Source: Podospora anserina (lineage: Eukaryota). Taken from it: a stretch of DNA of 64,000 bases. Below the pieces are notes generated by a model that was not told the origin of the DNA, did no database searches, and saw only the letters and a program-made list of their open reading frames with translations. Positions 6,346-64,000 of this stretch are shown here, piece by piece; the first letter of the stretch is position 1, and the number at the start of each line of letters is the position of its first letter. The DNA lies in contig CM030332.1 of assembly GCA_017654855.1 (NCBI GenBank), forward strand, positions 4,402,001 through 4,466,000, read 5' to 3'. Position numbers and translations under genes: made by a program.

Positions 6346-8191
6346 ATGATCCCGAGTTCGCCTGTCCCAGGCAGGTTGCCGGGCACGTCAGCCCCTGAGA
6401 CTGGGCTGGTCGATGTTGAGGGAACCACGAGATCTGGAAAGGAAGAGATAACAGGGGAAAGTGACTCTTCCGAAGTGAAAGAATTCAAGGAAGGTGGATA
6501 TGGCTGGTTAGTTTGCTAGCACTCTCCCATCAGTCTTCCTGCCAATCTGACAATGTATTCTCTAGGATGGTTGTCTTCTCAGTCGCCTTGGTCAACGCTC
6601 ATACATGGGGCCTAAACTCATCATATGCCGTGTTTCTTGCCTATTACTTGCGCTCTGGAGATATCGCTGGCTCTTCACCGCTTGCCTTTGCTTTTGTTGG
6701 CGGTCTCTCAATCTCGATCTGTGAGTCCATCCACACAGCAGCTCGCTTACCCAGGTTGCTTTTGACTGACACCTGTCACTCTTTTCAGCGCTGCTCGTCT
6801 CTCCACTGGTGACATGGTGTATAGGGAGGTTTGGAACCATACCTACGTTTCGGATAGGGGTTGTGTTCGAAGCGTGAGTCGGATCACTCTGATATCCAGC
6901 AATGCCTCCATGCTAACTCTCATCAAGCATCTCATTTGTGGGAGCTTCCTTTTCGACTCACATATATCACCTAATCCTAAGCCAAGGAGTGTGTTTTGGA
7001 ATTGGTTTGGGGTTTTGTTTTACAGCAACAGTCGGTGTAGTGCCCCAGTGGTTTGTTAAGCGACGTTCCTTTGCCAACGCTGTGGCGACATCTGGCTCTG
7101 GATTTGGTGGCCTCACATACTCCTTGGCCACCAATGCCATGATAACCAACCTGGGGCTGCCATGGGCTTTCAGAATCCTCGCCATTGTGGCGTTTGTGGT
7201 CAACGGTGGGTGCAGCTTGATCCTCCGTGATCGCAACAAGGCGGTCGGGGCGAAGCATGTGCCCTTCCATCTGGATCTCTTCAAACTACCTGAATATTGG
7301 CTATTCTTGGGTTGGGGCTTCTTTTCTCTCATGAGTTATGTCATTGTTGTATTTTCCATCACGGACTATGCTCAACAAGTTGGCTTCAGTGCCAGCCAGG
7401 GTTCCCTGGCTGCCGCCATCTTCAACTGTAAGTGGGCCACTTCTCTTCTCTTGCTCAAACAACTGTGCATACATACAAGATGCTAATTCATTTGGGGCTG
7501 GCAGTATCGCAAGGCATTGGAAGACCTCTCATTGGATTCGCCAGTGACCATGTTGGGAGACTCAACGTCGCTGGCCTCGGGACGCTCACCGCCGGCGTGG
7601 TTGCTTTCTTCTTGTGGGTCTTCGCCGGGAAGTCGTACCCAGGGTTGATCATATACGCCCTGTTCGGGGCGTTTGCCGGCATCATCTGGCCTTGTGTGGC
7701 TCCCGTTGGAGCTGAGGTGGTCGGTCTCTCACTACTACCTGCTGCTCTTTCAATTTATTGGCTTGTTCTCGTTCTTCCAGCCACCTTGTAAGCTTCCATT
7801 CACTTGGCCATGCATTTCTGCCCCACAGTGACTGACGCAAATCGCTGAACAGTGCCGAAGTGATTGGTCTGATGCTGAGAACATCTGGCGTTGATGGATA
7901 CCTGAATGTCCAGATTTTCACGGGGGTCATGTATATTGCCTCTTTCGTGTCCAGTACGTTCCTTTTTTCTTCAAACCTGTCTGCATTGTCACAATACATT
8001 CTAATTGCACGCGTTCTTTCATAGTCTGGCTTCTGAGGAGTTGGAAACTTCAACAAATGGAAATTTTGGGAACAATGGATGATCCGCTGGCGGTCGAGGC
8101 GCCCAATGCTGTCCAGTCGGGGGCAAAATCATCTGAAAACGGGCGTCCACGTTCGTACATCATGAATATGTTTGTTTTCAGGCATGTATAG
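6346..8191 (+). CDS. MFS transporter, monocarboxylate porter (Mch-like) family
   Basis: About 7 exons. N-terminal EGGYGW motif, hydrophobic TM segments, VVPQWFVKRRSFANAVATSGSGFGG and GRPLIGFASDHVGRLN (MFS motif A-like). The last exon ends ...MFVFRHV-TAG at 8191. Confidence 0.88.
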
Positions 8192-8482
8192 CAAGCAACG
8201 AGTACAAAATAGCTTCAGAATAATATTGGGAGGTCTGCGAATACAACCAACGGGCCCTGCGATACTACTTATAGGCCTTCCGAGGTGATCCGTCGATGTT
8301 AAAAGTTGTCAATGTCTTCTGACAAACCTATTGGATGCCTTGGAATGTGTCGATCTAACTTGACATCTCTATCATCTTGTCCACAATGTGTACCCCCAGC
8401 TACAAAACTATTACACCACCCAACGAATGAGAAGCTGTCCCACACAACTGGCTTTTCTTCCCTTCATCTTCATCTTCACCTT

Positions 8483-10838
8483 CTAAGCACTTGATAGCTC
8501 TATCGCCTTCGCCTTAGCCGCCTCGAAATCGTCAAAGGCGTAAAGCGGGAGGCCACTTTCCTCGATGAGTTTCTGTCCCTCCTTCTCGTTGGTCCCTCGA
8601 ATCCGTACCACGACGGGCACGCGTGGCGAGAGCTCCTTGAAAGCCATTATGATGCCGTTGGCGATCATGTCCCCCAAAGTCAGCCCGCCAAAAATATTCA
8701 CAAATATCACCCGGACCCTTGGATCTTTCAAGATAACCTCGAAGCCGTGCTTGACCGTCTCGCTAGTTGCTTTCCCGCCAGTATCGAGAAAATTAGTTGC
8801 GTGGCCCCCCAGGGCATCGACCGTGTTCATGGCGAGCCCTGCGCCATTGACCAAGGTTCCGATGGTCCCGTTACCCTCCAATTTGATGTATATAATGCCA
8901 CTCTTTTCCGCCTCGAGCTCAGAGGCATCCTCCACGGCTGTGTTTCTCAATTTCTGCAACTCGGTCTGCCGTCCGCAGCTTCGATAGGCTGCGTCGTCAA
9001 AGCCGAAGCGAGCACCAACCACCTTGATCTCACCAAGACGTTCCACAATCTCTGTCTCCATCAGATATGCCTCCTTTTCGTAAAATATGTCTGATAGTCT
9101 GTGGACAAGACGGCGGAGAGATTCATGGGCACTTTCCTTGAGACTGATGTGCAGGCGACTGGCAACACGCTCAATGGCAAGCTCGTCTGGACCGTGGCGA
9201 TAGTCGAAGGAGTAACGTTTTACCATCTTCTCGATCTGATCGTCATCCACGGTAGGAGCCGCAAGAATACACGGTGATCTGGTCGAACGATCGACCCCTA
9301 TGGCTAAGAAGCGCCTAGTGCCTAGCCCCGAGTAATGGCCGCAGTTAAGGCCTGCTTCGCGCAGCAGATCCATACAGTCGTCCTCGGACAATGTCAGGTG
9401 GCGCCGTTGCTGTGTGCACGGCTTTGCTAGAAACCGAGTCCTCGTTTGAGGTCTACGGACAGCCGTGTGGATCTGTCTACGCTGGTTTCCCAATTTGCCG
9501 CGACCAGCTGGGGAGTTCACCCCGTGTGTAGACCCTCCCAATCTTGCCTTGAAAGCTTCACCAAACTGACCTGGGTGTGTCACCATTGTCACACCAGCAG
9601 ACACCAGCGCTTCTATCTTCTCCTTCGCATCAGGTTCCCCAGCGATAGTGAAAGCTCCGGCATGACCCATGATACGACCGCGTGGCTCGTGAATCCCAGC
9701 GATAAGCCCGACTATTGGCCTATGGTTGAGCTGTTAGCTGACACAACCTGTGTAACGGCCATAATAAACCTACTTTGGAGTTTGTGTGCGAGAATGATAG
9801 TCTCGAATCCTATCCAGCGAGGTCGTTGTCAGCACACGAACACGGAATAGAAATGAAGGATTGGAAAAACAAGTCGGAATAATACCATTCGGCAGCATCC
9901 AGCTCACCCAAACCGCCGATTTCCCCGATTACAGCAATAGCCTCCGTATCACTGTCATTTTCTAAGACAGTGAAAGCCTCCCTCAGGTCTGTACCGGGAA
10001 CAATGTCACCGCCCACGCCTATACAAAGGCTCTGCCCAAGACCAGCTCTCGTGGTTGACGCCACAGTTTCATAGCTCAGCGTACCTGATTTAGCAATGAT
10101 TCCAATCTTCCCTGGCGAGAAGCAAGGCAAGGGCTGGAATCCTGGGACAATGTGACGTTAGTTCTCAGTACAGTAAGTGTGGATGTTGATATGGGCCATA
10201 TGCACACCGATTCGACACTTTCCCACGGCGGAGATGATCCCTGGGGAGTTTGGACCGACCAGGCGAGACTTGGATTGAGTCTTTAAGATAGAATGAATCT
10301 TTGAATGTCAGCATATTGGTTTTGGGATTTTCAGCAGTGGCGGCTCGCTTACTCGAAGCATGTCGTGCAGAGGAATATGCTCTGCTACTGCCACGATCAA
10401 AGGAACCTCGGCTTCAATGGCCTCCTCGATAGCACCTGGGGCCTGATGAGCTGCTACATAGATCGCTGTTGCATCTGGTTTGAGTTCTTTCATGGCCTAT
10501 CAGCTAGGTTAGCAGGGACTTGGGTGAGAGCACAGGCAGAGCACACAGACTGACTGAACCGTGGGGAGCACCGGAAGCCCGAGATGTTCTCCGGTCCGGC
10601 CGGGCCTCACGCCTCCAACAATGTTGGTCCCCCAAGCGATCGAGTCTTTGGCATTTGCTGTTGCCTGCTTGCCCGTGAAGCCTTGGAACATGACACGGGT
10701 GTGTGCTCCTATACGGAGATTGGGAAGAGTGTCGGCATAGCTCTGCAGTCTCACTGTTGTTCCAAAGTTTCGGCGCAGGGCTTGCTGCCGCGGCACGACG
10801 AATCGGGGCCCATATCGGATAGGCTGAACAACACGCAT
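8483..10838 (-). CDS. Succinyl-CoA synthetase-like alpha-beta fusion protein, mitochondrial-type, with truncated ATP-grasp
   Basis: Six exons. Arg-rich N-terminal presequence, then alpha motifs [41 protein letters not shown] and MGHAGA (phospho-His site). The same exon continues without a stop into beta motifs [34 protein letters not shown] and [10 protein letters not shown]. Confidence 0.9.
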
Positions 10839-11142
10839 TTTTTGGGGGATAAAGGGTTTCTAAGTATTTCAGAGTGGTGATGGTGTATATGGGAGACAAA
10901 CTCCCGGACAGGTAATACTGAATGTGAGCGCCAGCGCCTGTTGGCCGATCATATCCCACGATCAAGCCGAGGTATTTGGGTGTCGAAAAGAGGGACCGGT
11001 ACCAGTCGAGCATCGACGAACAAGATGCGTAAGTCGACTTACAGCCCAGAGCAACCATGTGGACGTCCCCAGACCCCGCAAACTAGCCCCTGTCGAAAAC
11101 GGCCGCATGGCATGGTGGGGTCATGCACATGTCATAACAAAA

Positions 11143-11657
11143 TCACCACTGAAGCTCGCCCTTGACGCCGTTGGTGTTGGCCCCAGCCTGGCTGGGAGTT
11201 TTGTCCTCCTTAAACCCCAGGTTTTTGAAGTCGTCTTTTGCCATCAAATTACTACAAGTCCAGAACCGTCAGCTTCCCAAAACAAGTACTGCCATCGCAT
11301 CTTTGGCGGTTGAGGAGTGACGAACTGGTCCATCCGACACCCAAGATATGACTTGGCCAGTTGCCGGCATTCGTCCTGGTTGACGCCTTTGACCTTCTTG
11401 ATACAGCTTAGGTAACTCATCATGACATCTTTGCACTCTCCTACAAGTACGAGCGGCCATGAGTAAGACATATGGCAAACCATCGATCGGTCATGAAGTT
11501 GGACTAAACATACCGTCATGATCAAGGGGAAAACTCCCTCTTTGTGGTCTTGTGACAGGGGCGTAATGTCAGTGTCGATTGTAAAATTATAAAACAGTGC
11601 TACTCACGGGGTGGGCTTGGTATTTGGGAGAGCCCCAGGGCTTCCGAAGGTACTCAT
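11143..11657 (-). CDS. COX19: Cytochrome c oxidase assembly protein Cox19 (twin CX9C)
   Basis: Four exons splice to [66 protein letters not shown]...NLMAKDDFKNLGF. The [15 protein letters not shown] signature and two CX9C motifs are present. Confidence 0.93.
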
Positions 11658-12591
11658 AGTGACTGGTGAAAGGCAAGTGTCTGAGAGGTTGTTCGAGGCA
11701 GCTGCGTACAGAAAAGCCTGCTATCGAATTGTTATTCTGGTTGAGATGGTTGGTCATTTACACTACCTATAGTTCATGAAGTGTCTGTTGCCGGCTGATC
11801 GAACCTGGTAACTCAACTGGGTGCCGGCCCGACTGCGGGATTACCTAAAGTTAGGTACTGGCAGCCACACCTAAGAACCCAGCCACACTCACACTCGAGG
11901 TAGCAGGTGAGGTAGCAAGTGTAGCCTCAGGCATTACCGGCGGCGGCCAGAAAAGCCCAAAGTCTTGTTTTCCTCACTGTTCTTCGCCAAGGCCAGCGCA
12001 CCTTGTTCGCGGTGGGTCAGCCTGTGACGACGCGCTTGTCCGTATCGGTAATGTGCACCACTTCGCACAAGCACTTCAACCTCCAACTTTTTTGTGGCTA
12101 CCCACTTGAACGGCCAAGTCCCGAATCGCCCCAATTTAATCCGCAGCTACGGAGTAGATTTTTGGCATCCACCCGCACCTTGGGCATGAACAGAGGGCAT
12201 CCCTCGTCTCTCTCGAGCTGCTAACGGCCAGGCGAAACAAACCCCCCTTCCTGTCTCTCCTTGTCAGTCTTTTTTCTCCCAAGAGCCGCGACCAGGCGTC
12301 CGCTGCTCCCTTTCTTTCCCTCATCAACGACTGACGATTTGCCCTTCAGCCAGCAGTGCGAGCATTGCGTCCCACCTGCTCAACCCATCACACACACCAC
12401 CACCACCCACCACCCACCACCCACCACCATCACCGCCCGCCACCTCAACTGGATCCTCGCTCGCTTTTCTCGCTCGCCCTGCTACCAGTAGCGCAGCTCC
12501 CGGTCCTTCACTGGCCCGCCCAACCGACCTAGCCATCTCTCCTAGATCACCACTTCAAGTTTCTTGTGGCCCTGCACAGAAAATCGCTATC

Positions 12592-58661: not shown

Positions 58662-60522
58662 ATGATCCCGCCCGCGCTCGCCCGCCTCTCGCGGGTATGG
58701 TTTCCCACCAAAAAAAGACCAGCATCGGGAGTAGAAAATGGGCATGCGAAGCTGATCCGTGCTGGGTTTTTGCGCCCTTCTCACGCCGGTATCTTCCACA
58801 TGCTTCCTCTGGGGAGGCGCGTGCAGACCAAGCTCGAGGAGCTGGTGGCCAGACATATGGAGCATATGTTGGGTGAGTCTCTCCCTCGGCGCACTAACCA
58901 TGGTCCCATGCTTACCCATGGCCACTGTCCCGGTCTCCAGCTGCCTCGAGGGTCTCGTTGTCGGCTGTATCAAGCCAGTCTCTCTGGGACAAGAGTGGGA
59001 GGCTTGAGAATACCGCGTCCGAGGTGTGTCAAATCGTCATGCCTTGTTTGAACACCTGGTGTTGACACTGCCTTCCCTGCAGCTCTTCAAGTTCTCTGAC
59101 CGTAAAAACGTTGGCTACCTTCTGGCCCCAACACATGAAGAGGAAATTACCGCTCTGGTGGCCCAGACGGCCAAGACAGCAAAGGATCTCCCCCTCAGGC
59201 TATTTCAGATTACACCCAAGTACCGCGATGAGTTTCGCCCGCGCCATGGCCTCCTCCGCGGACGAGAATTCGTTATGAAGGACCTCTATACCTTCGACAG
59301 CAGCAAAGAGTCCGCTCTAGAAACCTACGATAACGTTCGTCTGGTGTATTCGCAGATATTTGAGGAGATGAAACTCCCAGTGTTAGCAGCCAAGGCCAGC
59401 TCAGGTAACATGGGAGGTAATCTCAGCCACGAATACCATCTTCCCACGCCACTTGGAGAAGACCATGTTATCAGTTGTGATAGCTGTAACTATGTTGCTA
59501 ACGAGGAGGTGGCTGAATCAGTACTTTCTGACCAGGTTGTCAGTGACACGACCTTCCGCGTCTGGCGAGGCATCACCAAGGACCGAACCAAATTGGTCAA
59601 CGTCTGGTACCCCAAGCAAACACAACCCCTTGGTGGGGGTGCGTTGAGAGAGTATACGGACCTCGACATAAACATTGCGGAGGTGAAATCCATAATCCCT
59701 GACCTGGATGCCGGTGTTGAGGATGCGCTGCCGCTGTGGTCGACGGCGGCAGCTGCGGGTGGGACAGCTGTGGAGCTCGTGAACATTGTTGACTGCCGGC
59801 TTCCGCTGTCCTTCTCTGAGAGCCTGGTGGGAACTAAGCCAACCATCCCAAGTTGGCCCAAAAATTTGACGCCACGCAACCAAGTGCCAGTGTCGGTTTC
59901 AGTTCAAAACACCAACCAATGGAACAAAGACAGACCACTCAATCTCATTCGGATCCAGACAGGCGACAAGTGCCCTTCGTGCGCATCCGGACATCTAAAG
60001 GCAGAGAAGGCAATGGAGTTAGGACACACATTTTACCTTGGCACCCGGTACTCAGAAGCCCTGGGAGCTACAATCTTGGTGCCCAATGATGAGAGGAAAG
60101 CTGTGCCAATGCAGATGGGTTGCTATGGAATCGGTATCTCCCGGATTCTTGGCGCCGTCGCAGAGCTCCTGATGGACGAAAAGGGATTGAATTGGCCGGT
60201 GGCTATTGCACCCTACTCCTGTGTCATAGTTATGGGCGCTGGTGTCGACGAACAGGATGCAGTGGAGGTGTATCGCCAGATCAACCAGATAGGACGAGTT
60301 CAGGCCAAATATCTGGATGTCGTGCTGGACGACAGGCAAAAGACTCTACCCTGGAAGTTGATGGATGCCGATTTAGCTGGTTTCCCCATCATAGTCACGC
60401 TTGGGAGGGAGTGGCTTGCGGCAAAACGCCTCGAGGTACAATGTCGACGATTAGGGGTAAAGCAAGCAGTCGGGATAACCGAGCTACCACAGATAATAGC
60501 CAAGTTGCACGGAGACTTGTAG
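58662..60522 (+). CDS. Prolyl-tRNA synthetase, bacterial/mitochondrial type (Aim10-like)
   Basis: LIRAGFLRPSHAGIFHMLPLG, LAPTHEEEIT, KYRDEFRPRHGLLRGREFVMKDLY, ELGHTFYLGTRYS, MGCYGIGISR, WPVAIAPY. Two introns. Start codon uncertain. Confidence 0.92.
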
Positions 60523-61959
60523 GGCTGTATCCACTGTATAAATATACATCTGATGCGTGCTGCTATCACGACCAATAACACCAATGGGTTCTGCTTAATC
60601 TCGAAATCATTTATACCTACTCAACCAAGACGGGTGTGTGAGCAAGCAACTCCTACCTACCAAGCGTGCAAAACCCTCCTAGGATCATTATTTCGGCCAT
60701 TTTAAAGGAACATTGACTGTGCGGCTCTTGCTATCCCTGTAGACAGGTTGGGCGATCGTAAGTCGCCTTTGTTCCACCTGTCACTGCTATCCTTGAGACC
60801 TTCACAACCCGCTTTACAGGCTCGGTGTAGTAGTTCCATGTGGTTCCCGAACAAGTATTGACGCTGATCTAAGGGAGAGTGTTGCTCCTGGCTAAACTGA
60901 GATAGTGCCACTGACCTCGAACCCCGGCCTATCTGTAAAGGATTTCGGCATAATAAAACAGAACAAAGGGTACTTTTAAATGCTTTTAACAAGTTGATAA
61001 TAATATAGCTTTCAAAGTATAAAATAATTTATTTTAATGATTTTATAAATAATTTTGTTAACAAATAGAAAAGAAGTAATGTAAATCTTTTTAAATATAT
61101 TTTATTATTACATTTTTGATGTTTCTTTTAACTTTAAATAAAACAAATTTTATTAAATAATATCTAGAAAATATTCTGCTTATATAATTTTTATTTAACT
61201 AGTTACTATTAAAAATTAAAGTATTATTCTAATATAACTTTTAATATGTAAATTAAACTGTAATTTAGACTTCATAAATATAAAGTTCAGTTTATAATTA
61301 CTTTTATGTTATAAAACTTATTAGATATTTATGTATCATAATAGTACATTCAATATTTATGTAAAAATTGAAAGAAAACAATTAATAAAAATAAAGATAT
61401 TTCAATTATAATACTTTTTGTATTTATTTGTTAACTTTTCTACTTTAAGGAAATTAGTTAGTTAGGCTTTTAGAAGTAAAAAACCTATTTGAAATGTAGT
61501 TTTTTGGTTTTATAAATATATAAATATATTAAAGTTTAAAACAGTTTTAGTAATCTTAAATAATAAATTAATAATTATTATAATATTAGCTTAATACATT
61601 TACTTATATAGTCCTAACTACCTAGGTTTCGATGGGCAGTAAGCTTTCTTATAGAGCCTACTGTAAAATTTCTAAGGTTATAAAACATTTATATATTTAT
61701 TTTTTATAAGGCGTAACTATAATAATACGAAATTAATAAGAAGAAATGTAGTCGGTGAATTATTAAAGGTAGAAATTTTTTTAAAAAGAATTAATACGTA
61801 AATATTTATAACTTCGAACATCTTTAATTATTGTAAAAAACCCCTCTACCCAAAGAAACCTAATTATTTAGGTCTTTATAAATAGAGAAGATTCCTATAT
61901 AATTTACCAATCCTAAATAAACGAAATAATCAAATTAAACATAAAATTTATACTTCTTA

Positions 61960-62330
61960 TGTGACGAACCCCTGTACAGAACCTCTGAAAGGGATACGGG
62001 TTGAAGGTAACTTCTGACAATTGGTTCGGTGCAGCTAGACAGTGCACAACAAGATGTCTCAATGTAAACACAAGATACCGTGAATACAACTGTGGATTGC
62101 ATACTGCGGAACTGTCTATCTACACCAGCCAGTTCCTCTGTATATATAGACCTGTTTATCACCATTATCACCAGTGATAATGTCGATTATTACTCGTCGT
62201 TCACCGAAGGCTGGTGATAATTGTGATTATCACCCTTGGCGCTAGTGATAATCTGACTTCCCCACTTTTCCGTTCCTAGTGGTTAGACGGGTCGCGCCCC
62301 GCGCTCCCCACTTATGTCAGGTCCGTGACA
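61960..62330. mobile_element. Solo LTR (371 bp), little or no RIP, with 5-bp TSD
   Basis: Starts TGTGACG and ends CGTGACA (TG...CA, imperfect terminal inverted repeat). Flanked by TCTTA at 61955-61959 and 62331-62335. Confidence 0.9.
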
Positions 62331-62462
62331 TCTTACTAGGGTAAAAAAATATAATACCAAAAGAGTACGAGGTTAGCGGAAAGAAGTAAAGTTGATTAAT
62401 TTTCGGAAACAACGAAAATATTTCCTTTCCGCTTTAGTTTGAGGTATAGATTTACGCCTAAT

Positions 62463-62900
62463 TGTGACGAACCCCTATACAGAACCTTTAAAAGGGATAC
62501 GGGTTAAAGGTAACTTCTAATAATTAGTTCGGTGCAGCTAAACAGTATATAATAAAATGTCTTAATATAAATATAAAATACCGTAAATATAATTATAAAT
62601 TACATACTACGGAACTATCTATCTATATTAGCTAGTTCCTGTATATATATAAACTTCTTTTCCTAACTGTAATTCCTTTAATTAATATCCTAAGTATATT
62701 AATTACTTACGTTTAGCCTAATTAATATCCTAATTATATTAATTATCCCAGCCTAGCCTATTTAATTTAATTAATATTTTAATCGTATTAATTACCGTCC
62801 CTTACTATAATTAGCTTTCTTAAGTATTTTCCTAATTAGCCTTTACTCCCGTAATTCTATAACTAATCGTTATTCTCGTTTATATATTAGGGTTATAATA
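62463..62900. mobile_element. RIP-mutated related LTR copy
   Basis: The first ~190 bp align with the 61960 LTR through mostly CA>TA and TG>TA changes. The right end is tentative: GGTTATAATA could be a RIP-mutated G-G-T-C-G-T-G-A-C-A terminus. Confidence 0.75.
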
Positions 62901-64000
62901 CGATACTCCTCCTTTTAAACTAACGTCCCGGTAGTCCTAATTTTTTTTATTTTTTTTAATAACAACTTCCTTCCTTAATAAATTTTCCCTTCTTATTATT
63001 ATCTTTTCGCAATATTTAATTATATTAAGAAACCTACGCCAAAAGGCCTTTCCAGTACCCTTCGTTACTAAAATCTTATTACTATTACTTTTATTTTTAA
63101 TAACAAAATACTTCCTTATTTGTTTTACGAAACCCTTAGAATTTTTAATTATTACACTTTCGAATACTTTTTTAGATATAACTACTATATTAGTTCTAAT
63201 CGTTTCGACTATAATATCCTGGATCTTACTTCCGCCCTAATAACTTTCCTTCGTTATTAAAAGGAAAAACTAAATATTAATAAGCGAAAAGCCCATACGA
63301 CTATACTATAAACTACTTCAAAGCTTTCGCGAATAGAGACTTAGCGTTATACTTTAGTCGCTAAATTCCGTTATATTACGGCCCGTAAAGAACGGTTAAT
63401 CGAGGATTTAAAACGGAAGGAAGTATAAATTACCTTTATTACTAATCTTCTTCTAACCTTTTCTCTTAATTGGGCCTCCGTAATACTAAACTAGCCCGAC
63501 CTAAACCTTCCGAACGACCTATCCTTTAACTTTCCGCTTAATTCCGACCTTTTCCTAAAGTCGGCCGTTAGTACTTCCCGGAGTTCCCTACCTCCAGCTA
63601 CCCCGGATTTTTCTAACGGTAATCCTTTTATTTTTTAAGGTAATTAATATTTATAATATTATTTACGCCTAGATTCCTTCGTACTTATTAACTTTATAGT
63701 ATAGTACGTAGTACGTTAATTACTACGTTAAAAGTATAAATTTAATTCCTATCGAGGTTCTTTTATATTTATATTATAAATATTTTTCCATAACTTAAAT
63801 ATAGTTCTTTTTATTTATTTAGGTTTTAATCGGTTTAGGTATTACTAATAAAATTCTTTTTATTTATTTAAGTAATTAAGGTTTACTTTTAATTCCTATA
63901 AATTATTTATAACCGAATACTTTAATTAATTAACTAAATACTTTAATTAATTTTTATTAAACCATAAATTTAATATTTCTTTTATATTACACTTCTTTTT

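Follow-up and report, generated by a model that had tools for sequence, protein, structure and literature searches.

A lid-less fusion of succinyl-CoA synthetase alpha and beta halves in Podospora anserina, with a conserved CoA/acid site and a degenerate nucleotide site

Succinyl-CoA synthetase (SCS) is the textbook two-site enzyme, in which a histidine shuttles a phosphoryl group between a site for coenzyme A (CoA) and the acid (site I) and a nucleotide site (site II). The roles of His246-alpha, Glu208-alpha and Glu197-beta in SCS are described in the relevant passages of PMC10342173. A working mode that dispenses with the nucleotide is found in Escherichia coli AllF (FdrA), a component of the oxamic transcarbamylase AllFGH, which converts oxalurate and inorganic phosphate (Pi) to oxamate and carbamoyl phosphate (PMC11326118). 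In the sections of that article dealing with the enzyme, AllF is an SCS-alpha-like protein (PF00549) acting in reversible, phosphate-dependent, nucleotide-free acyl transfer without an ATP-grasp partner (PMC11326118). Here we describe a gene of the filamentous fungus Podospora anserina, located on the minus strand at 10838-8483 of a 64,000-nucleotide stretch (the window; GenBank assembly GCA_017654855.1, contig CM030332.1, positions 4,402,001 to 4,466,000 of the forward strand). Its 683-residue product consists of a basic presequence, a complete SCS alpha half, a 48-residue basic linker and an SCS beta half without the lid of its ATP-grasp. With one site deleted and the other strongly constrained, the protein offers a natural experiment on what site I does alone. 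We lean towards reading it as a conserved, site-I-only, mitochondrial SCS derivative that probably carries out phospho-histidine/acyl-phosphate chemistry on an acyl-CoA.

The first-pass annotation of this locus concerned the interval 8483-9400 (minus strand), which corresponds to the beta half and falls in the last exon of the six-exon gene. It held that the beta half had lost its ATP-grasp, with the segment carrying the KAQVxAGGRGK loop (about 80-90 residues) missing. MAFFT alignment places 13 residues between the end of beta helix 1 and the next conserved strand in the window protein, compared with 98-103 in 13 complete beta chains (six LSC2-type, four of a second fungal paralogue, one from Saitoella and two bacterial). 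Rows not counted as complete were two N-terminally cut records (Fusarium, 361 residues, and P0171), the shorter fusion P0198 (81 residues in this interval) and a Trichosporon row (61 residues, misaligned through its presequence). About 85 residues are missing, including the KAQVLAGGRGKG-type nucleotide-binding stretch of the canonical beta rows, and the loss of the loop segment is borne out. We take the absent stretch to be the small subdomain of the ATP-grasp, going by the E. coli structure. Profile searches place the loss in the same region. Pfam ATP-grasp_2 reached 12.9 bits (E 0.087; cut-off 29.5), its match being confined to profile positions 108-196 of 202. The NCBIfam sucC models NF001913 (204 bits against 370) and TIGR01016 (191 against 375.6) matched from position 109/110 on only, and in a phmmer search of the PDB E. 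coli SucC was aligned from residue 108 on. This sub-threshold ATP-grasp_2 score, alongside CoA_binding and Ligase_CoA hits, is the Pfam result that the first-pass annotation had expected.

For comparison, 39 full-length-looking orthologues were chosen among the best 120 matches listed and aligned; they are 62-73% identical to the window protein. Their genera include Neurospora, Chaetomium and Podospora as well as Hyaloscypha, Cadophora and Oidiodendron, which we take to represent Sordariomycetes and Leotiomycetes. All 39 share a short junction, 13-25 residues long, and the gap is therefore not due to chance.

What remains of the ATP-grasp is substantial. The first beta strand and helix (residues 376-399; 9338-9409, this and all following features of the gene being on the minus strand) align with the N-terminus of canonical beta chains, and an AlphaFold2 (AF2) model places a strand at 379-381 and a helix at 384-393 with a predicted local distance difference test score (pLDDT) of ~90. 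A deletion scar loop (residues 396-407; 9314-9349), overlapping the end of this part, replaces the ~85-residue small subdomain. It is followed by the large ATP-grasp subdomain (residues 408-530; 8945-9313), which lacks conserved nucleotide or Mg ligands. This block, from the first strand and helix through the large subdomain, has pLDDT values mostly of 85-96. The beta remnant as a whole is confidently modelled and the linker is disordered. Thus only the small (lid) subdomain has been deleted, and the large subdomain persists as a scaffold; the proposed loss of the ATP-grasp holds for the former and fails for the latter. In Foldseek comparisons the template modelling (TM) score for alpha chains, which served as the reference for normalisation, was 0.72-0.75. 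For beta chains of 371-420 residues the alignments covered ~285-297 columns, with TM scores of 0.56-0.64 normalised to the target. No intact ATP-grasp is seen in the AF2 model.

That the missing lid is an error of the gene model or assembly, such as a skipped exon, or marks a decaying duplicate or recent pseudogene, is hardly credible. Exon borders read by hand from the sequence give coding exons at 10838-10551, 10496-10353, 10298-10208, 10141-9886, 9809-9774 and 9719-8483, with the stop codon at 8485-8483 and five introns of 54-76 bases with GT..AG ends. The product derived in this way is letter-identical to a database protein of 683 residues (P0002), which represents 14 member sequences on 12 contigs. 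Assembled contigs from three sequencing runs belonging to three studies (X1, X8 and X11) skip 54, 76, 66, 54 and 54 bases exactly at the exon borders, and the skipped stretches end in CT..AC on the plus strand, corresponding to GT..AG on the minus strand. A further run, apparently of DNA (X16), covers the locus unspliced. The kinds of run (RNA or DNA) were guessed, and it is the joints themselves that constitute the evidence of splicing; since they exist, the gene is transcribed and the gene model is right. The beta half lies within a single uninterrupted exon of 1237 bases, so no lid-encoding exon is missing or hidden there. Many database relatives are fragmentary or mis-modelled, at 300-600 residues, which would be in keeping with an artefact. 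Against it stand the single exon, with no room for another, the identical reading frame obtained from RNA-derived contigs of three studies, and the short junction in every one of the 39 orthologues, whose genera presumably span two ascomycete classes. The gene is also without the signature of repeat-induced point mutation (RIP), none being found over 8001-12000, unlike the end of the window. The spliced contigs and the shared short junction led us to reject the pseudogene or artefact reading. The lid-less fusion gene is a real gene in use, and the decaying copy that the first-pass annotation had named among the outcomes that would refute its proposal is not what was found.

Conservation across the 39 orthologues is uneven, with a majority fraction of 0.85 in the alpha half, 0.87 in the beta C-terminal domain, 0.67 in the remnant of the large subdomain and 0.48 in the linker. 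This is the pattern that would be expected of a working protein under purifying selection for catalysis. His291, Glu248, Ser193, Gly194, Thr195, Asn563, Lys588 and Thr619 are invariant in all 39. His291, whose codon lies at 9662-9664 within MGHAGA, corresponds to His246-alpha, the residue phosphorylated in E. coli SCS; Glu248 is the equivalent of Glu208-alpha, Ser193-Gly194-Thr195 form the Ser-Gly-Thr motif, and Lys588 and Thr619 are specific to the family. The CoA-binding motif, MGHAGA and NGAGLAM, which had been described as retained, are present in the alignments and in the Pfam matches. The beta C-terminal CoA-ligase domain (residues 531-683; 8486-8944) is recognised by Pfam Ligase_CoA (PF00549) with E 4.7e-25 and 88.6 bits against a cut-off of 24.5, and would form site I jointly with the alpha half. 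Its phosphate- and acid-facing loops are among the most conserved stretches of the protein (0.92-0.96). One of its ten-residue loops (residues 581-590; 8765-8794) corresponds to NFLDVGGGAT of LSC2-type beta chains, with Thr585 and Lys588 invariant in the family, and the ten-residue substrate loop (residues 613-622; 8669-8698) corresponds to NIFGGI(V/M)RCD, with Leu618 and Thr619 invariant.

Site II presents the opposite picture. The remains of its EINPL and DAK motifs (residues 492-509; 9008-9061) read METEIV in place of canonical LEINPL and VVGAR in place of DAK (DGK in E. coli). When residues were counted in the alignment at positions 493, 495, 507 and 509, the equivalent of Glu197-beta was E in 24 orthologues, T in eight, S in five and A and I in one each. 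The equivalent of Asn199-beta was N in one of 39, that of Asp213-beta was D in none, and the DAK lysine was K in two. The window protein itself has E, E and G at the Glu197-beta, Asn199-beta and Asp213-beta equivalents. Each of the motif changes that had been read from the sequence (ETEIV for EINPL, GAR for DAK, an altered NIFGGIVRCD loop and GPNSPG for GPNCPG) was found at its place. Selection thus acts to maintain the CoA/acid/phosphate site, the nucleotide site having been released. Together with the missing lid, the unconserved site-II residues (E in 24, N in 1 and D in 0 of 39) uphold the claim that this is not a normal succinyl-CoA ligase.

The family also carries invariant changes close to the pocket of site I, namely GGLT for GGI(V/M), GGKAT for GGGAT, AEHIP for TEGIP, AAHQ for PPPF and Ala or Ser for the Cys of GPNCPG. 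At the latter motif (GPNSPG in the window protein, residues 159-164; 10239-10256) the Cys is replaced by A in 20 and by S in 19 of the 39 family members. Differences from canonical alpha chains at several residues of the CoA and thiol pocket (AAHQ, AEHIP and no Cys in GPN(A/S)PG), the loss of one of the two active sites and the lack of any reported function in the searchable literature would suit a pseudoenzyme, that is, a silent SCS scaffold kept by mitochondria as a CoA or acyl-CoA sensor, a regulator or a structural protein. Such a change to a non-catalytic role is exemplified by the ACD-like domain of bacterial Pat acetyltransferases. We consider this unlikely for the fusion. Every residue known in site-I chemistry (His291, Glu248 and Ser-Gly-Thr) is unchanged in all 39 orthologues, the phosphate- and acid-facing loops are nearly as constant, and such a pattern would be unusual for a pure binding module.

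The persistence of the large subdomain raises another alternative, in which the protein would still be a nucleoside triphosphate (NTP)-dependent ligase whose nucleotide step takes place in trans, a separate protein docking on this subdomain and phosphorylating or dephosphorylating His291. Candidate partners are a nucleoside-diphosphate kinase (NDPK), a stand-alone ATP-grasp protein or a beta-type paralogue. The subdomain has been kept, folds confidently in the model and has invariant residues, and a further beta-type paralogue with an intact ATP-grasp occurs in Pezizomycotina. Complexes of SCS with mitochondrial NDPK, and a possible hand-over of phosphate between phospho-histidine sites, are discussed as a hypothesis in the pertinent part of PMC10342173. 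On the other hand, the equivalent of Glu197-beta, which serves the histidine at site II in SCS, is unconserved. The position of the beta C-terminal domain beside alpha is already filled in cis, which would leave a second beta chain no obvious place, and the neighbouring genes (a LIM protein, an MFS transporter, a dynamin and an F-box protein) indicate no partner. We regard a nucleotide step in trans as improbable, even more so than a pseudoenzyme.

The favoured interpretation, a site-I-only enzyme, would work as follows. With the lid missing and what is left of site II drifting, no phosphoryl exchange between the histidine and ATP or GTP would be expected in cis. All parts of site I (the CoA-binding domain, the His291 loop, Glu248, Ser-Gly-Thr and the two loops of the beta C-terminal domain) appear intact. 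With that site so strongly conserved, the protein would most likely still carry out the nucleotide-independent half-reaction of SCS, in which acyl-CoA and Pi give acyl-phosphate and CoA, and acyl-phosphate and His291 give the free acid and phospho-His291. In the work of Fraser et al. in 2002, site I reportedly phosphorylated the histidine from succinyl-CoA and Pi when Glu197-beta was mutated; the PDB title of an E197-beta-A mutant is among the Foldseek matches. An NTP-independent phospho-histidine/acyl-phosphate cycle, as put forward in the first-pass annotation for a possible CoA-transferase, phosphorolase or hydrolase, is consistent with the invariant site-I residues. Turnover would require an acceptor other than a nucleoside diphosphate, the most economical being a second carboxylic acid. 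The protein would then be a phosphate-dependent CoA-transferase conserving the thioester energy in the phosphoenzyme. A simpler alternative would be hydrolysis of phospho-His291, giving a net thioesterase. We infer the substrate and the net reaction from these features only; the invariant, family-specific pocket changes suggest that the acid is not simply succinate.

Taken further, this would amount to a new reaction type in the SCS superfamily, in which catalytic phosphate and a phospho-histidine move CoA between carboxylic acids, or phosphorolyse an acyl-CoA, free of nucleotide. We put this forward tentatively, as a possibility with the odds somewhat against it. If true, fungal mitochondria would gain an energy-conserving CoA-transferase unrelated to the known CoA-transferase classes. 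If active, the enzyme would give fungal mitochondria a hitherto undescribed way of handling acyl-CoA esters without nucleotide, and the label 'succinyl-CoA ligase subunit alpha', attached automatically to hundreds of sequences, would be corrected. An inactive one would be a clear case of a core enzyme of the tricarboxylic acid (TCA) cycle turned pseudoenzyme.

Several observations weigh against the reading that we favour. The large subdomain is moderately conserved, with E488, E498, F510, F512 and D513 invariant, and may serve an unexplained purpose, for instance as a docking site for a partner that donates or takes up the phosphoryl group. One Foldseek row (7jmk_D) extends over 360 columns, gaps included, against a beta chain of 354 residues at 28% identity. 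The AF2 model of the alpha half is mediocre (mean pLDDT 70.1; predicted TM score 0.63), and the histidine loop at 283-300 falls below 50. The model is therefore no demonstration that site I assembles as in SCS, and was rejected as evidence to that effect. The mitochondrial location is read from amino-acid composition only, and whatever goes beyond the anatomy is interpretation. To our knowledge, a phosphate-dependent CoA-transferase on this fold has never been described, and conserved catalytic residues by themselves would be compatible with a ligand-sensing pseudoenzyme as well. Finally, phylogeny gives only a hint of a single clade. A maximum-likelihood tree of 27 rows placed the ten family rows on one side of a branch with support of 74/100, with a stand-alone beta-like protein of Saitoella as sister (53/90). 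With 10 of the 24 inner branches open, the deep ones among them, the phylogeny was rejected as proof of a single origin.

The remaining parts of the protein concern its targeting and possible processing. Residues 1-33 (10740-10838) form an N-terminal extension with seven Arg and Lys and no Asp or Glu, a majority fraction of 0.38 and a pLDDT of ~30. They lie ahead of the point where the match to mature SCS alpha of pig and human begins and are likely a mitochondrial presequence; from this basic, presequence-like N-terminus we infer a mitochondrial location for the fusion. The alpha half (residues 34-327; 9554-10739, introns included) comprises a CoA-binding domain and a Ligase_CoA/flavodoxin-like domain, both found by Pfam on the alpha exons, and in phmmer residues 29-327 match pig and human SCS alpha with E ~1e-81. 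The linker between the halves (residues 328-375; 9410-9553) has 11 Arg and Lys, no Asp or Glu and pLDDT values of 25-49. At its end is a QQRR-type motif resembling the end of the presequence of stand-alone fungal beta subunits, and QQRR or QQKR stands right before the first beta strand in canonical and family rows alike. Since the linker retains an ancestral beta presequence motif, internal cleavage by the mitochondrial processing peptidase is conceivable, and the linker might be a site at which one polyprotein precursor releases separate alpha' and beta' chains. The ARG-6 polyprotein of Neurospora crassa is a precedent for a precursor that is cut into separate proteins. In the linker region R353 is invariant, and R378 is nearly so.

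The family is recognised by an alpha-then-beta fusion of ~630-740 residues, a lid-less beta half and the motifs GGLT and GGKAT, features that are present in the Podospora protein and common to all 39 orthologues. Among the matches listed, the nearest named members are those of Triangularia verruculosa (86% identity) and Apiosordaria backusii (85%), and Neurospora crassa, a standard model in genetics, is included (P0083). In the Atlas, the query adjoins two mainly ascomycete clusters, one of 335 members (score 0.98) and one of 105 (0.97). A search of representatives at the level of 50% clusters also found the fusion in Elsinoe fawcettii, Stictis urceolata and the basidiomycete Mycena chlorophos. 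The Atlas clusters are automatically named 'succinyl-CoA ligase subunit alpha', and elsewhere the family is annotated automatically as 'succinyl-CoA synthetase-like protein'. Openly searchable full text yielded no paper on either the fused family or an SCS without a lid, subscription journals and supplements lying outside that search. The family is thus already in the databases, mis-annotated, and is uncharacterised in the searchable literature.

Pseudoneurospora amorphoporcata, Coniochaeta sp. 2T2.1 and Hyaloscypha variabilis have a canonical LSC2-type beta subunit beside the fusion, and these subunits are 78-86% identical among those fungi. Going by this coexistence in three other named species, the fusion is apparently a paralogue rather than a replacement of the TCA-cycle enzyme. 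It is not the only SCS gene in these fungi; had it been, this would have spoken against the first-pass proposal.

Other architectures were encountered in the same searches. Pezizomycotina have a second stand-alone beta-type paralogue (P0284, P0286, P0299, P0353 and P0354) with an intact ATP-grasp and the motifs NFLDAGGQAT and NIYGGIIRCD. It forms a clade (100/98) apart from the LSC2 type, and both types are recorded for Lomentospora prolificans and Cladobotryum mycophilum. P0175 and P0198 are beta-then-alpha fusions of ~700-720 residues with a full-length ATP-grasp, complete fused SCS-like ligases that are unrelated to lid loss; two Atlas clusters of similar architecture are mostly Thermodesulfobacteriota. 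An unnamed record of 687 residues (P0202) consists of two near-identical tandem lid-less beta-like modules with FGYGAGLSMST and NIFGGLTRCD and has no alpha half. This record represents one more architecture within the wider group, or else an artefact of assembly or gene calling.

Some of the other genes of the window were scanned. Neighbours of the fusion gene are those for a LIM-domain protein, a transporter of the major facilitator superfamily (MFS), a small CHCH-like open reading frame (ORF), a dynamin and an F-box/DUF7892 protein; no metabolic cluster or functional lead was seen among the neighbouring genes scanned. The MFS-type transporter gene has several exons at 6500-8060 on the plus strand, tail-to-tail with the SCS-like gene, and MFS_1 was found on two of its ORF pieces (E 1.4e-13 and 1.8e-6). 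The small ORF (11244-11525, minus strand) lies upstream of the fusion gene on the same strand and has paired Cys motifs, with no Pfam hit at E 0.001; the motifs resemble those of CHCH/Cox19-like proteins of the mitochondrial intermembrane space. At the far end of the window, between 61000 and 64000, G+C content drops sharply to 0.12-0.42 in windows of 250 bases. The TpA/ApT ratio over 60001-64000 is 1.29 and the (CpA+TpG)/(ApC+GpT) ratio 0.66, compared with 0.53-0.71 and 1.17-1.42 in the rest of the window. By the usual thresholds for these RIP indices, the values suggest a block of repeats mutated by RIP.

Among known systems, mitochondrial and bacterial SCS (LSC1/LSC2; SUCLG1 with SUCLA2 or SUCLG2; E. 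coli SucCD; PDB 2fp4, 6g4q and 2scu) come closest. They share with the fusion the alpha fold, the catalytic histidine, the Glu208-alpha equivalent and Ser-Gly-Thr, and on the beta side the C-terminal CoA-ligase domain, the first strand and helix and the large ATP-grasp subdomain. Identity in the Foldseek alignments is ~42-45% to alpha chains and 32-35% to beta chains. The fusion differs in that the subunits are joined, alpha first, by a basic linker, in that the ~85-residue small subdomain is deleted and EINPL and DAK are degenerate, and in the invariant pocket changes GGLT, GGKAT, GPN(A/S)PG, AEHIP and AAHQ; it also falls below the ATP-grasp_2 and sucC cut-offs. Of the features that define a canonical SCS, it has an alpha half with the CoA-binding domain and the MGHAGA histidine and a beta Ligase_CoA domain, and lacks the complete ATP-grasp and the site-II residues.

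ADP-forming acetyl-CoA synthetases (ACD) and ATP-citrate lyase are other members of the superfamily, with a swinging phospho-histidine loop and fused forms, but both retain a working ATP-grasp. The fusion scored far below the ACD models TIGR02717/NF045494 (AcCoA-syn-alpha, 18.3 and 22.5 bits against 567; 13.3 bits against 1200). Chains of ATP-citrate lyase (ACLY) match only the alpha part, residues 82-329, with E 1e-7 to 1e-9, and Pfam gave no hits in the fusion for the citrate-binding and citrate-synthase-like domains of that enzyme. AllF/FdrA, as portrayed in the consulted sections of its description, is the nearest precedent for the proposed working mode only. The analogy drawn in the first-pass annotation holds to that extent and does not carry over to sequence membership, as the fusion reached 21.7 bits with the model NF004760 (cut-off 433), from a single alpha exon. 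AllF moreover works with AllG (YlbE) and AllH (YlbF) in place of a beta C-terminal domain, and is bacterial, with no CoA substrate known.

Nearer in sequence are two fungal proteins. The stand-alone beta-like protein of Saitoella (P0261/P0280, 429 residues) has GGLTRGD and GG(R/K)AT in common with the family but is unfused, retains the lid, in which the glycine-rich stretch is degenerate (ANQRQTG for canonical AGGRGKG), and has SPK for DAK and an intact EINPL. It looks like an intermediate stage. A protein of Trichosporon asahii (P0271, 672 residues) has a beta half shorter than a complete chain, with GGLT and without EINPL or DAK, and a histidine-bearing alpha half. It differs in its beta-then-alpha order, in a very long branch (4.25) with an unresolved position in the tree, and in keeping GANCPG; we read it as having lost the lid, its N-terminal region being poorly aligned, with 61 residues in the lid columns. 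From these comparisons we cautiously suggest that a fungal beta paralogue first lost its nucleotide-binding residues and then its lid, and that alpha' and beta' genes were fused at least twice. Fusion more than once, and in the opposite order in Trichosporon asahii, would argue that the two halves work together.

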